The notes under the pieces are model-generated. The model worked only from the letters and a program-made list of their open reading frames with translations, did not search any database and had not been told where the DNA came from. Positions 11,737 to 24,690 of a DNA stretch of 64,000 bases are shown in pieces. Source of the stretch: Candidatus Poribacteria bacterium (GTDB taxonomy: Bacteria; Poribacteria; WGA-4E; JAJDTR01); assembly GCA_965222225.1 (NCBI GenBank), contig CBDCTK010000002.1, positions 5,408,001-5,472,000 on the forward strand, in the 5' to 3' direction. Each line of letters begins with the position of its first letter. Within the stretch, counting starts at the first letter, position 1. A program made the position numbers and the translations under genes.

Positions 11737-12065
11737 ATCAAACGACCGATCAAAGGAACGGATAGTGACTGCGATAGAGTTCCCATAGAGATTCCTGATA
11801 GGAAGGATCAAGTGACCGAATAGGATCAACCGAGTGGCTAGCGAGGACGATAGAGTTCCTCATGCGATAGGGATCCTAAGGCGATAGTAAATCCCATAGG
11901 GAGTGCGATAGAACTTCCATAGAAATTCGACCAGCCTTTGAAAGCGCCAGCGGTGCGAAAGGTGTATAGTAACGCGGATTCACTACACACCAAAGCCCCA
12001 GCGGAGATCAAGCGAATGGATAATGAGCAATCAAACGAGCGAACAGCGAGTGCGATAGAGATCGC
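11737..12065 (+). mobile_element. Cluster of ~6 nested copies of the 36-nt structured element
   Basis: ATCAA heads at 11737, 11749, 11807, 11825, 12007 and 12030, with stacked GCGATAG..TCC tails at 11863-11929. Confidence 0.8.
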
Positions 12066-15569: not shown

Positions 15570-15770
15570 GATTAAGCGAGCGAATAGATCAAGTGACCGG
15601 ATAGGGAACGCGATAGCAATCCCCTGAAGCGACTGAATAAGTTGTAGGGTGGGATCAAAGGAGTGAATAACGATCAAGCGAATGAATAATGAGTGCGATA
15701 GTGAATCCCGTACGATAGAGGTCCCCCTGCCCACCATCTCTTGGGGTATCCCAATGCGATAGAGTCTCCG
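15570..15770 (+). mobile_element. Cluster of ~5 copies of the 36-nt element, two inside REP GTAGGGTGGG...CTGCCCACC
   Basis: Heads at 15571, 15588, 15625, 15654 and 15673. REP arms at 15644-15653 and 15727-15735. Confidence 0.8.
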
Positions 15771-17805: not shown

Positions 17806-18957
17806 ATGGCACACGCCTATACGCCGGGGCTAAAAGTCTCAAGAGGTATGACGATACACAAGCAGCGCAGGCTACCGCTTGAAGGTGAAGTGCTTGTGGG
17901 TGTCGGTGACAAAGTTTGTGCCGACGAGGTCGTCGCAAAGGCGGATCTCCCTGGCAATGTGCAGCTGGTAAATATTGCGAATCTGCTCAGCGTTCCCGCC
18001 GGTGATGTGGAGGAATACACAACCAAAAAGATAGGCGAAAGCGTCGAAAAAGATGAAATCCTCGCGGCAACCAAAGGAATTTTCGGGCTTTTCAAATCAC
18101 AAGCCCGTTCCCCGATTTCTGGAATGGTCGAAAACATTTCCGATGTCACTGGACATGTGATTCTTCGCGAGCCTCCAATCCCTGTCGAGGTGAGAGCTTA
18201 TGTAGACGGATCTGTCACTGAAGTCGCTGGTAATGAAGGGATTACCGTCGAGGCCTACGGTACCTACATTCAGGGAATCTTCGGTATCGGAGGAGAAACC
18301 CTTGGAATACTGGAGGTCGTCGTCAGCTCCCCTGATGCGCCTCTTACCCCTGACCTAATTCAGCCTCAACACCGGGACAAAATTCTTGTCGGTGGGTCGA
18401 TTGTTTCGCACGATGCGATTCAAGCGGCGATTCGAAGTGGTGTTAGAGGATTGATTGTGGGCGGTATTGATGACAAAGATCTCCGGGAACTCTTGCGTTA
18501 TGAACTCGGTGTCGCCATCACTGGCTCCGAAGACATCGGTATCACCCTCGTTGTTACGGAAGGCTTTGGGAAGATCCGAATGGCGGATCGCACTTTCAAT
18601 CTACTTAAGGAACGACAAGGCCTCAAAACATCAATCAATGGTACAACCCAAATTCGCGCCGGAGTGGTACGTCCGGAAATCGTCGTTCCTTTCGAATCAA
18701 GCGGGCATCTGATAGAGGATGCTGTCGTAGCCGGAATACTTGAGGTCGGCACGCCGGTTCGTGTCATTCGTGAACCCTATTTCGGACAACTTGGTCGTGT
18801 TACCGCGTTGCCTGTCGAACGCCAACAGCTGGAAACCGGAGCCAAGGTGCGCATCTTGGAAGCTGAGTTGGACGACGGCGCACAAATAACGCTTCCGCGG
18901 GCAAATGTCGAAATCATTGAGGAGACACAATCTGCCTTCTCCGACACGAGCGGATAA
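17806..18957 (+). CDS. Conserved hypothetical protein (barrel-sandwich-like N-terminus, KOW-like C-terminus)
   Basis: 383-aa ORF with MAHAYTPGL, QGIFGIGGE, LVVTEGFG, VRVIREPYFG and PRANVEII. Function not recognised. Confidence 0.75.
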   Translation: MAHAYTPGLKVSRGMTIHKQRRLPLEGEVLVGVGDKVCADEVVAKADLPGNVQLVNIANLLSVPAGDVEEYTTKKIGESVEKDEILAATKGIFGLFKSQARSPISGMVENISDVTGHVILREPPIPVEVRAYVDGSVTEVAGNEGITVEAYGTYIQGIFGIGGETLGILEVVVSSPDAPLTPDLIQPQHRDKILVGGSIVSHDAIQAAIRSGVRGLIVGGIDDKDLRELLRYELGVAITGSEDIGITLVVTEGFGKIRMADRTFNLLKERQGLKTSINGTTQIRAGVVRPEIVVPFESSGHLIEDAVVAGILEVGTPVRVIREPYFGQLGRVTALPVERQQLETGAKVRILEAELDDGAQITLPRANVEIIEETQSAFSDTSG

Positions 18958-19007
18958 TCAATACGCTAGGACTTACGCGGAAACAGGAGGTCGCGACGGT
19001 AGGCGGA

Positions 19008-19149
19008 GATCAACTGAGCGATCAGGCGACTGGATAAGGAGCGCGATAGAGTTCCTATAGCGAAGGATCAAGGTAACGGATAGTGACCGATCAACTGAAT
19101 GGACAGTGAAGGCGATAGAAAGTCTTGATAGCAATCCCATAGAGATCCG
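19008..19149 (+). mobile_element. Four-copy, three-level nest of the 36-nt element
   Basis: Removing the inner copies reconstitutes outer copies with intact pairing (see findings). Confidence 0.85.
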
Positions 19150-19416
19150 TTAATCCGCGATTCAGACAATTACTAAAATTCACAATCCCCATACCTTATT
19201 CTCTTAGCGAATAAACCACTAATACACTAATTGATAAATTTCCACCCCATGAGAAGATTAAGGGTGGAGCTAATCGATAATTCAAGCAAAATTGGCGTCA
19301 TAAACCTGATTGCGTTTCACTGCAATTATTCCATAACCACATGGGGCACCGCTAGTACCGAACCGGTCCTACACTCCTATCGCCCGATTCTTTGGAGAGA
19401 TTTGATTTTGAACACT

Positions 19417-20685
19417 ATGTATCGATTGAGGACAAATCCTTTTATGAAAGCAACAAACAGAAAACTCCGACTGGTTTTAGTCTGTTTCTCGGCAGTTTTC
19501 CTTTCATCTTCGCTGTTGGAAACCATCAACTCTGGCATAATCCTCTGCTGGGCGTCAAGTACAGATATGAACTCTACGTCTGAAGTTCAAGAGCCGTTAA
19601 AAGGAAACGCAGAGGTCGCGGACATCAATACCGGATGTTTCGGCCCAATTCATAATGAGGATGTTGACCTCGTGGAGAGTACCGAACTGATTCGACAGCA
19701 TAATCCGTTGCTATGCCAAGCCAATTTGACAAAGCAGCGAGGATTTGAAGAAATCGATCTGCTCCAAGATCGCGGGGAAGCGCCCCCAAAATTGCTAAGC
19801 AAGACCAGTCCGAAAAAATCACAGTCGCCAGAGCTGTCCGTCGATTCGCCCCTTGAGGCGGGAATTGATAGATATATCAAGAGTAACCGATACCGGCGTA
19901 CGTTGGCATCGACAGACCAAACGAGTTTCGTTGTTTACGACATTTCGAAGGGAAAAAAGGTTGTCTCGATTAACGAAGACCAACCCATGATGGCGGCGTC
20001 CCTTATCAAAAACTTTGTGATGTTAGTCTATTTTCACGAGGTCCGACAGGGACGGTTGCACCACACAAACCAGAATCGCCTACATCTGAAAAACATGATC
20101 CAGCGGAGCTATAATTCCTCGACAAACTACTTTATCAGATTGCTTGGCGGCCCCCACCGCGTGAATCAACTCCTCAGATGGAATTATCCCTTATTCGAGC
20201 ATACGCGTATCGTTGAAAATATTCCAAGCGGCGGGCGCACCTATCGAAACATGACCTCTGCGCACGATATGAACCGTTTCTATTATCAATTATGGCTGGG
20301 GCATCTGCCCCATTCTCCGAAAATGAAACATTATCTGGGTTTGCCCAAAGGGGATCGCCTTTACGATAAAACCTGCATTCCGCGGGGTGTTCACGTCTAC
20401 AATAAAACCGGCACGGTTTATGGAATGGTTGGAGATAGTGGGATTTTGGTCATCACCGACCCGAAAGGCAAACAGCGTGCATACATTCTAATCGCAATCA
20501 TTGAAGACAGGACCAAAACCAATCTTCGGAATCGCTCCCAATCCTTCGGATCCTGGGTGAGTCGCCGCACAGAAATCCTGCGTAGTGTCTCGGAAGGTGT
20601 CTACGAATATATCTACGAGCGGCATTATGGTGGAGTATACCAGTGCCGGCAGCATCGCGGTAGACACCTAATCGCTAGGAAGTAG
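19417..20685 (+). CDS. Class-A beta-lactamase-like serine hydrolase / PBP-like protein (start uncertain)
   Basis: Motifs SxxK (ASLIK), SxN (SYN) and KTG; N-terminal hydrophobic segment. Confidence 0.85.
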   Translation: MYRLRTNPFMKATNRKLRLVLVCFSAVFLSSSLLETINSGIILCWASSTDMNSTSEVQEPLKGNAEVADINTGCFGPIHNEDVDLVESTELIRQHNPLLCQANLTKQRGFEEIDLLQDRGEAPPKLLSKTSPKKSQSPELSVDSPLEAGIDRYIKSNRYRRTLASTDQTSFVVYDISKGKKVVSINEDQPMMAASLIKNFVMLVYFHEVRQGRLHHTNQNRLHLKNMIQRSYNSSTNYFIRLLGGPHRVNQLLRWNYPLFEHTRIVENIPSGGRTYRNMTSAHDMNRFYYQLWLGHLPHSPKMKHYLGLPKGDRLYDKTCIPRGVHVYNKTGTVYGMVGDSGILVITDPKGKQRAYILIAIIEDRTKTNLRNRSQSFGSWVSRRTEILRSVSEGVYEYIYERHYGGVYQCRQHRGRHLIARK

Positions 20686-20693
20686 CTCTTCTT

Positions 20694-20940
20694 GTAGGGT
20701 GGGATCAAGCGAGTGAATAGCGATCAAGGGAACGAACAGTGATCGATCAACTGAATGGACAGTGAAGGCGATAGAAATTCCCTCAAGCGAACGATCAACT
20801 GAGATCAAACGAGCGAATAGCGATTGACCGAGTGGACAACGAGGGACAACTGAGTGAATAACGAAGGCGATAGCAATCCCGTGCGATAGAGCTCCATCAG
20901 CGATTATTAAGTCGTCGTTTTTCCTTCTTATTGCCCACCA
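20694..20940 (+). mobile_element. Cluster of ~8 copies of the 36-nt element inside REP GTAGGGTGGG...TGCCCACC
   Basis: Heads at 20704, 20723, 20746, 20783, 20794, 20804, 20823 and 20846. REP right arm at ~20932-20939. Confidence 0.8.
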
Positions 20941-23745: not shown

Positions 23746-24422
23746 TTAATGCATCCTTTCAGTTTGAGCCTATACGCTGACCTCAAGAAGTAGACCACTG
23801 TCGCAGTCTCATTCTACCAAAATTCGGGACGATTGTCCACGATTTTTCCGAACCCTGTCACGCGCTGACACTAGAAGACGCATTCTGTTCATTGATGCAT
23901 GCTCAGACAGGCATATCGAGCCATTGATTAAGTCAGCCAAATGAAGTAAAATCAGGTTTACACATTTCGGTTGGTAGTAGCATCTTCTTTAGCCCCTTGT
24001 AGGAACAATTTCCCGATCGCGACTCCTGAAGGGTGAGATTTTCAAAAACGACCAAAATGACGCTGTCGCCTGTTGTGTAAACTCGCTCTAAACGATGTCT
24101 TCCCAAACATAAATCTAAAAACTCAATTGTTCTGAATGGCAACCACGGTTTCATACCAACATTTCATACCAACGTCTCATTAGCTTTGATGTCAAAACAG
24201 CGTATAATCCAGTCATAGAAAGGGTTTACGTGCTTTTCTATCGCTATTGAAAATCCCCATTTTGGTATGAAAAGTATGAAAAGTATGAAATTTTCCGGGA
24301 CGGCTAAACAGCGTTTTTCGAGTAGTACCTAGGGATTTCAAACAGGTTCTAAATGTCGTCGTTATAGAGATGCGGATTTTGAGATATTACGAAGAAAGTG
24401 TAAGATCGACTTTGTACATTTT

Positions 24423-24690
24423 TAGGGTGGAATCAAGCGAACGGATAGTGAGTGCGATAGGAATCCCCTGTCCACCATTTCTTGTAGGGTGTGCATTGCG
24501 ATCAAGTGACCGAATAGGGAACGCGATAGAGATCTTACCAGCCTCTAAAAGCCCCAGAGGGGATCAAACGAACGGATAGTGAGTGTGATAGCGATTCCAC
24601 AGGTATATAGCAGGCAACTACAAAAACATGAAAACACCCCTTTCTCAAATTACTGGAAATAGATTTGCCGCCTATTATTCAAACAGGTTC
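24423..24690 (+). mobile_element. REP/MITE mosaic with three 36-nt elements (24431, 24500, 24562); MITE right end TTCAAACAGGTTC abuts the RBS of the next gene
   Basis: Aligns with the MITE copies at 29401 and 37500. Confidence 0.75.

Follow-up and report, generated by a model that had tools for sequence, protein, structure and literature searches.

The locus: four nested copies of one short unit

The window analysed here is a 64-kb stretch of a Candidatus Poribacteria genome, read as a whole. Between a 383-aa ORF (17806-18957) and a beta-lactamase-like ORF (19231-20685) it carries an intergenic cluster (19008-19149) made of four copies of one unit of about 36 nt, arranged in three nesting levels. 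The parts of this nest, and the short repeat around it, are the following:

18999..19007, + strand: GTAG tag and GCGGA arm of a short REP-like inverted repeat around the whole nest, read from the sequence
19008..19020, + strand: outer copy, 5' part G-ATCAA-CT-GA-GC-G, with the loop cut after G12 (or G12-A13); peel test, 44.8 bits, 4/4 pairs
19021..19056, + strand: copy 2, intact, within the loop of the outer copy; PWM 44.6 bits, pairs G-C, C-G, C-G and T-A
19057..19066, + strand: outer copy, middle part ATA-GC-GA-AG-G, ending at G23; sequence and peel test
19067..19089, + strand: copy 3, 5' part ATCAA-GG-TA-AC-GGATA-GT-GA-CC-G, placed after G23 of the outer copy; restored at 39.0 bits, 4/4 pairs
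19090..19125, + strand: copy 4, intact, placed after G23 of copy 3; 44.6 bits, 4/4 pairs, its removal (36 nt) restores copy 3
19126..19138, + strand: copy 3, 3' part TGATAGCAATCCC, in which position 24 is T, not C; peel test and comparison with the congener G024
19139..19148, + strand: outer copy, 3' part ATAGAGATCC, whose junction lacks the CG of the GCGATAG consensus; peel test

The cluster was scored with a PWM built from 757 regex-defined copies of the genome, a matrix that has no pairing term. Two intact copies were found in the region (19020/19021-19056 and 19089/19090-19125), both with 44.6 bits and 4/4 stem pairs. Deletion of the 36 nt at 19090-19125 brought copy 3 (19066/19067-19138) back at 39.0 bits with 4/4 pairs. 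Moreover, deletion of copy 2 (35 nt, 19022-19056) together with copy 3 restored the outer copy (19008-19148) at 44.8 bits, and all four pairs of its stem (C-G, T-A, G-C and C-G) were present. A sequence-only reading of this DNA had transcribed positions 19008-19149 and parsed them as nested insertions, with the outer pairs CT/AG and GC/GC intact and copy 3 interrupted by copy 4. The transcribed letters agree exactly with the sequence, and peeling recovers the same parse, coordinates and outer pairs, including the exact 36-nt removal of copy 4.

Copy 3 bears a rare GGTAAC signature, and ATCAAGGTAAC occurs three times in the genome. Across the genome no junction class is commoner than the loss of CG after G23 seen in the outer copy (49 of 222 nests). 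The partner arm of GCGGA, TCCGC, lies at 19154-19158, and the REP-like inverted repeat GTAG-GCGGA...TCCGC would host the whole nest.

The motif of the element is found again in many intergenic parts of the window: when up to 2 mismatches were allowed, GATAGAGATCC gave 38 matches there, compared with 15.9 expected, and none of 100 shuffles reached 38. All 20 element copies in the window are on the + strand. Two further nests and one dense cluster were delineated:

11806..11877, + strand: second nest, an outer copy with an inner copy at 11824-11860; outer copy restored at 38.0 bits, 4/4 pairs
15653..15725, + strand: third nest, an outer copy with an inner copy at 15672-15708; outer copy restored at 47.6 bits, 3/4 pairs
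20703..20895, + strand: dense cluster of intact (20745-20781, 20844-20880) and fragmentary copies, with no clean peel

Several 5' pieces of the last cluster have no evident partner. Note that directly upstream of the start of an M42 peptidase, at 24375-24660 of the window, there is a composite (about 290 nt) in which a REP and a GCCCC/GGGGC hairpin module are combined with three 36-nt copies; it is missing at the orthologous site of four relatives (L001, L006, L027, L029). Also upstream of the M42 gene, at 24149-24290, are the tandem repeats TTTCATACCAACA (x1.9) and GTATGAAAA (x2.9), which are kept in several relatives with varying copy number and may be regulatory.

The 36-nt unit and its stem

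The unit can be written as (G)ATCAA-NNGANN-GRATA-NNGANN-GCGATAGRRATCC(C); its consensus, (G)ATCAA NN GA NN G[A/G]ATA NN GA NN GCGATAG[A]RATCC(C), spans 36 nt from A1 to C36. We searched the genome (Candidatus Poribacteria, 5.70 Mb in 2 contigs, 50% GC) with the family regex ATCAA-NN-GA-NN-loop-NN-GA-NN-NCGATAG, which gave 763 copies, 757 of them with a 5-nt loop. Ungapped full-length PWM matches of at least 18 bits numbered 1154 in the genome and 0 in the reversed sequence. The base before A1 is G in 92% of the 757 copies; in the left flank, position -1 is C in 50% and G in 38%, and position -2 is G in 58%. According to crude ORF calls, 149 of the 1151 chromosomal copies are inside ORFs (at least 100 aa) and the remainder are intergenic.

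Four variable pairs (6:22, 7:21, 10:18 and 11:17) form the stem, and between them the invariant G8-A9 and G19-A20 make a tandem G.A/A.G. Watson-Crick or G.T pairs occupy all four positions in 655 of the 757 copies, three in 90 and two in 12. In support of this stem, among 112 distinct copies taken from the window and its relatives 92.6% of the 448 cells were paired, compared with 59.4 +/- 1.8 after shuffling; the covariation score of 0.973 (0.342 shuffled) was reached by none of 500 shuffles, and slid registers gave at most 58%. Wobble is one-sided: G.T pairs far exceed A.C (318 vs 41, of 3028 cells), and because of this the hairpin is seen to be selected on the ATCAA strand only. The stem letters themselves are very diverse, with 170 octets and 56 different 5' tetrads among the 757 copies, and the 56 tetrads seen are close in number to the 54 combinations allowed by the per-column preferences.

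Nearest-neighbour DNA folding of single copies and of the whole nest, on both strands, gave no energy signal (z from -0.6 to +0.6), and its predicted minimum was a structure other than the covarying stem. Rfam covariance models had no match at gathering score in the window; between 18900 and 21000 two chance-level matches were seen (E 0.98 and 6.9), neither of them on the element. Note also that 36 nt correspond to 12 codons and that the consensus is open in two reverse frames. Elsewhere in the genome (G000 C2:1578410-1578600) there is a head-to-tail array of at least five variant copies with a 38-nt period and a stem that differs in each unit. The tail of these variants is GATAGTCTTGTAGG, so GTAGG precedes each next copy.

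Nesting and junctions across the genome

Peeling was extended to the whole genome and the junctions were tabulated. Removal of an intact copy restored an outer copy of at least 30 bits in 254 of 1154 cases, and 222 junctions were classed. We took the 108 distinct restored copies whose stem was split by the insert and re-paired their left and right halves at random. The peeled halves pair well above chance: 239 of 299 split stem pairs are intact, compared with 170.2 in the shuffled sets (sd 6.2, maximum 190 in 2000 shuffles; z = 11.1). Since many of the nests and REP inserts were multiplied as parts of propagated composites, the nest counts overstate the number of independent events.

Inserts in the 222 nests entered the outer copy after G23 in 110 cases, after G19 in 33 and after G12 in 23, and at positions 17 (23) and 18 (16); position 10 (7), G25 (5), position 21 (4) and position 22 (1) were rarer. 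The net gain in these nests was 36 nt (95), 35 (32), 34 (79), 33 (11), 32 (4) or 37 (1). Filled and empty paralogues, of which we compared 118 pairs, gave 36 (40), 35 (34), 34 (31), 33 (6), 37 (4), 38 (2) and 32 (1). The joint on the ATCAA side is exact, and the far side drops 0-2 target bases, typically the CG of G^CGA. Neither the 222 nests nor the 118 pairs showed any target duplication, and terminal inverted repeats were not found, the ends of the unit being ATCAA and ATCC(C). At one common threshold, 5' and 3' modules numbered 1447 and 1503 (nulls 47 and 64), or about 1400 and 1440 net. This balance indicates that whole units are inserted and that systematic truncation is absent.

The sequence-only reading had proposed, from one cluster, a mobile unit of about 35-36 nt whose inserts begin with ATCA directly 3' of a G, make no target duplication and change 0-2 bases. 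All of these features recur genome-wide: a G precedes 92% of the 757 copies, nests and paralogue pairs agree on the gain (mostly 34-36 nt), and both define a unit that starts with ATCAA after G. Its preference for insertion over slippage is upheld by complementary split halves, by balanced modules, by the REP targets and by a less-nested orthologue (the last two are described below). We consider it highly probable that the nest arose by real insertions. The cluster is the work of a 36-base element that is present in more than 1000 copies, has repeatedly inserted into its own copies and is among the smallest mobile DNA elements known. It is extremely improbable that no insertion took place and that the cluster reflects a tandem or slipped array, recombination or faulty assembly instead: some clusters (20703-20895) do peel uncleanly and tandem 38-nt variant arrays exist elsewhere in the genome, but neighbouring copies differ at the variable bases while split halves match, there is a less-nested orthologue (G024), and each junction is confirmed by short-read contigs from four studies.

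Targets outside the element

The other main targets are GTAG-tagged REP hairpins and a GCCCC/GGGGC hairpin. In the GTAG-tagged REP GTAGGGTGCGCACTGCGCACCAGCC the insertion points are TGCG^CACTGC and CTGCG^CACCA, and in the GCCCC/GGGGC hairpin there is a single point, GCCCCAGCGGGG^CGACAGG; empty copies exist of both targets. Since one REP point is filled by differing element subfamilies, with 62 empty REP copies alongside, this point has been hit more than once. AGCG^ATCTC is represented by two filled sites. The preferred insertion contexts are GCG^C/A and G^CGA, and GTAGGGTGCGCACTGCGCACC would be a putative target sequence for element insertion.

Inserts in the palindromic REPs nearly all share the GTAG strand (73, with 2 on the opposite strand). 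For 297 of 1095 intact copies a GTAG lies upstream, no more than 20 nt away and with the spacing expected of an insertion into host REPs. The tag does not belong to the unit itself, and inner copies of nests lack it.

Relatives, distribution and independent assemblies

The nearest relatives of the window are Candidatus Poribacteria MAGs. The intergenic region of the nest is syntenic in nine congeners and different in each of them, and inserts of the element are the reason why orthologous intergenic lengths vary by hundreds of bases between congeners. In one congener (G024) the locus has the outer 5' part, then an uninterrupted copy with the ATCAAGGTAAC start and then ATAGAGA; when copies 2 and 4 are removed from the window locus, the two align colinearly. 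The empty site of copy 4 in G024 reads GACCG^CGATAG. Because the outer copy and copy 3 are common to the G024 locus, they are older than the split of the two species. Judging from this alignment, copies 2 and 4 were probably inserted later, precise loss in G024 being the less parsimonious alternative.

Short-read contigs from four runs of four studies, one run possibly being the source sample, span every junction of the nest and differ from it by 0-2 mismatches; an RNA library is among the four runs, and DNA carry-over is possible in it. Misassembly is unlikely because contigs from four studies span each junction. The sequence-only reading had suggested a search of reads for alleles that lack the inner copies, and contigs gave one lead of this kind. 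A joint from 19089 to 19127 with a C between them, corresponding to copy 3 without copy 4, was found in two runs (X5, depth 6.5; X9, depth 27.5), and the present genome does not contain this form, even when searched as a 17-mer. Since its sides measure only 21-22 nt, the joint is a lead only and may stem from a related strain or species. Most of the other contig joints are paralogues, since their 20-25-nt sides carry foreign letters.

We surveyed 176 Poribacteria genomes from 31 genera by pattern matches. All ten genomes of the window's own genus (g1) have the element, with 459-1094 matches, and so do the four genomes of a genus of another family (g7), with 142-166. Elsewhere, seven genomes had 1-17 matches and 155 had none. 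The only genome examined of the sister genus g2 (G018) had 2 matches, and no Y1 match to PF01797 was seen in it. In g7 the tail of the copies is GATAGTCTT/TTTT (GCGATAG-TCTT/TTTT...) and a few stem types dominate, which would be compatible with a more recent spread or transfer. In the g7 genome G035, none of 17 intact copies at 10 loci was nested, a small sample. Note that the dominant g7 stem, CTGAGC/GCGAAG, is the stem of the outer copy of the nest (L110, L113, L116, L130, L132, L138). In two of the genomes with few matches, both from otherwise element-free genera, G041 (17; contigs C72, C83, C91 and C116) and G146 (5; C61 and C362), the matches cluster on small contigs, and we suspect that these are mis-binned contigs of a g1-type genome.

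Strand bias and the single-strand evidence

Of the 1151 chromosomal copies, 767 are on the C-rich strand and 384 on the G-rich strand. This bias follows GC skew (Spearman -0.52, p 6e-8) and hardly gene strand (0.085). The GTAG strand of the REPs shares it (81 vs 34), and so do solo copies (167 vs 99). Here the C-rich strand was taken as the leading-strand template, an assumption that fits the correlation between skew and gene strand (r = 0.49). A transcription-linked function was considered and set aside, with 363 copies co-oriented with genes and 312 anti-oriented by crude ORF calls.

Note that the GC skew of the contig (G000 C2) switches sign about ten times, not twice, a pattern that hints at numerous inversions or at a mosaic assembly. 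Bins of 100 kb that are rich in the element (for example at 1.5, 1.9, 3.0 and 5.3 Mb) are strongly one-stranded.

We favour a route through single-stranded DNA because of the tiny size of the unit, the lack of a duplication, a hairpin and a targeting of palindromes that are both strand-specific, and an orientation that follows GC skew. Taken together, these features make a single-stranded DNA intermediate the somewhat likelier case.

How the element may move

In our reading the cluster was built up as insertions of a non-autonomous mini-element, some 36 nt long, followed one another. Whole units enter in one orientation directly 3' of a G, with a net gain of 34-36 nt and often at the cost of 1-2 target bases. 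Copies land in copies because the element itself offers sites, after G23, G19 and G12 and at positions 17/18. What moves would be single-stranded DNA in its hairpin fold, and an enzyme encoded by the host would cut and join it in trans; the most plausible candidate is a Y1 HUH transposase (RAYT/IS200 type). Movement by Y1 HUH/RAYT enzymes has been proposed for REPs. For this explanation as a whole, inferred steps included, we see about even chances.

Five Y1_Tnp matches are present in the genome. The one intact IS200-type gene (L081; G000 C2:3080258-3080728; 157 aa) scores 65.8 bits with NF033573 (cut-off 55) and 30.6 bits with the REP-tyrosine-transposase model, under the cut-off of 80. Repeat modules in inverted orientation lie on both sides of this gene and contain the element, whose copies there sit within other repeat modules. 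A RAYT remnant (L085:1389-1749; G000 C2, near 3.56 Mb) retains only the C-terminal 73 aa with the catalytic-Tyr region and has two inverted 36-nt copies close on either side; the N-terminal half of the gene seems to have been lost where an element lies. The Y1 matches, the inverted copies beside these two genes and the lack of a PF01797 match in G018, with its 2 element matches, all speak for HUH.

Co-occurrence did not single out an enzyme, the two Y1 types tested being widespread in element-free genera: homologues of the IS200-type gene are found in 105 of 176 Poribacteria genomes and those of the RAYT type in 90 of 176, most element-free genera included. Moreover, the IS200-type query had no match in two element-carrying genomes (G032, G034), nor the RAYT-type query in four (G019, G021, G026, G033). 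An autonomous parent was sought as 5' and 3' modules at a recurrent long distance, and this gave only gene-length spacings between neighbouring intergenic clusters. A Y1 HUH enzyme stays a plausible agent at a little under even chances, because a fixed target is missing, the joints are ragged, the bias is opposite and the Y1 types are widespread.

These results divide the chemistry that had been suggested from sequence alone. The lack of target duplication argues against DDE transposition, as had been claimed, and several features speak for a single-stranded route. The imprecise joint and the opposite bias do not suit an IS200/IS605-like reaction, and splicing-like chemistry found no backing, with no RNA family match and no gene orientation. 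In a bolder reading, which we put forward tentatively, a unit recognisable only by its tandem-G.A hairpin would be moved by an enzyme or reaction outside the classical IS200/IS605 HUH pathway, one that leaves the G^ATCAA joint exact and the far joint ragged. The element would then stand for a new class of self-targeting mobile DNA of ultra-small size, and SDR-like systems would for the first time be known from a host other than cyanobacteria. The stem would, as part of that reading, be freely reprogrammable, the 56 tetrads and 170 octets nearly filling the allowed space.

Copy-choice during replication would need no transposase. A nascent strand ending in G would re-prime on another copy at G|ATCAA after leaving its template at a hairpin-prone site, copy as far as ...TCC(C) and return with little or no homology, giving ragged 3' joints. 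The exact ATCAA joint, the variable TCC side and the loss of 0-2 target bases agree with this route; 1-3 nt of the left flanks are the same as in typical flanks of donors (GCG, GGG), and the replication-strand bias, the hairpin targets and the lack of a co-distributing enzyme (two Y1 types tested) also agree with it. However, inserts are almost always complete units with balanced 5' and 3' modules, and 1-3 nt is very little microhomology for switching that recurs so faithfully. The orientation in palindromic REPs (73 vs 2) also speaks against copy-choice, and the restriction to g1 and g7 among 31 genera fits an acquired agent better than a property of the polymerase. We regard copy-choice as unlikely.

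A dedicated non-HUH enzyme of g1 and g7 might recognise the tandem-G.A hairpin and cut and join at G^. The element is confined to these two genera (10/10 and 4/4), both Y1 families tested are widespread, and the conserved tandem G.A and GRATA loop, unexplained by folding energy, resemble a protein-recognition module; however, no candidate gene was identified, and we give such an enzyme a fairly small chance.

In target-primed reverse transcription the far end is joined imprecisely. A spread of this type, with the RNA of the element reverse-transcribed from a nick at the target G, would account for one exact and one ragged joint with small target deletions and no target duplication; G.U-compatible pairs suit an RNA structure, and RNA-library contigs cover the region, with DNA carry-over being possible. 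We nevertheless hold it to be very improbable. The sole reverse-transcriptase match is weak (27.5 bits, in a 670-aa ORF unlinked to the repeats), there is no preference for gene direction (363 vs 312) and truncated copies are not in excess. Moreover, if the ATCAA strand is the one primed, the RNA is its complement and the G.T pairs become A.C mismatches.

Comparison with known systems

Repeats of 20-40 nt are common in bacteria, and to our knowledge direct evidence that they move as units is scarce. The evidence provided by the self-inserting element described here is unusually clean: split stems that match, many filled and empty targets, a less-nested orthologue in a sister species and a strand-specific structure. 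It also defines a minimal substrate, 36 nt with one hairpin, in a host from an uncultured phylum of sponge symbionts, and the element shapes about 1% of the genome. Should the agent be other than a known transposase, the interest of the system would rise considerably; if the reading as a new class is true, more than 1000 copies, empty and filled sites and two host genera would make the movement of 20-40-nt repeats directly testable.

MITEs of the DDE type have terminal inverted repeats and target-site duplications and usually exceed 100 bp. The element is similar to them (Correia, Nezha-like) in being non-autonomous, intergenic and of high copy number, but it has neither terminal inverted repeats nor target duplication, and it is 36 nt long.

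Members of the IS200/IS605 family carry two subterminal hairpins, whereas the element has one. It shares with them the lack of target duplication, insertion 3' of defined base(s), a hairpin on one strand and a correlation with replication direction. IS608 and ISDra2 are described as carrying out precise HUH reactions at a fixed 4-5-nt target (TTAC, TTGAT) beside the left end (PMC2806898, PMC5027513), and for IS608 the rule given is that the active (top) strand is on the lagging-strand template (PMC5027513). In contrast, the target of the element is fixed at G only, 0-2 target bases are lost and the 3' joint is imprecise; its hairpin strand is mostly on the C-rich strand (767 of 1151), a bias opposite to that of IS608.

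With the REP/REPIN-RAYT systems the element has in common that it is a short intergenic hairpin repeat with hundreds of copies, in a genome with Y1 genes; strand bias and co-orientation are also common to it and the GTAG-REPs of this genome. Inverted copies flank some of the Y1 genes, at L081 within other repeat modules and at L085 beside a truncated RAYT. REPs and REPINs have a GTAG or CGTC tag at one end of the palindrome. The element unit has no such tag, and only four Watson-Crick pairs surround its tandem G.A. Unlike REPINs, the window copies are one-way (20/20) with no inverted doublets, and the element inserts into REPs. It differs from REP-RAYT systems, too, in having no specific RAYT co-distribution, as judged from one RAYT type and the IS200 type that were profiled.

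Judged by the features that define each group, the element belongs neither to the REPs nor to the IS200/IS605 derivatives or the DDE MITEs. Among the papers listed in our literature search, none combined Poribacteria with REP, RAYT, REPIN, SDR or MITE terms.

For the small dispersed repeats (SDRs) of cyanobacteria, Elhai and colleagues reportedly described in Genome Research in 2008 SDRs inserted in SDRs, with a shared predicted hairpin and lengths said to range from 21 to 27 nt. We know of no mechanism established for them since 2008. As with SDRs, the element is a very small dispersed repeat, taken as mobile, with no transposase of its own; it differs in its length of 36 nt and in its host, a member of the Poribacteria rather than a heterocyst-forming cyanobacterium. 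SDRs are said to be confined to Nostocaceae (PMC5861425), and SDR5 is given as 21 nt long (PMC13756078). The insertion of SDR5 is described as precise, between the third and fourth base of GCGATCGC, that is, after GCG (PMC4390886). The insertion point of the element follows a G, often that of a GCG. HIP1 itself is not its target here, and the genome is not HIP1-rich, with 117 GCGATCGC per strand in about 5.6 Mb. On this comparison, the closest analogues of the element appear to be the cyanobacterial SDRs and the REPs, and in its behaviour it would be closest to the SDRs.
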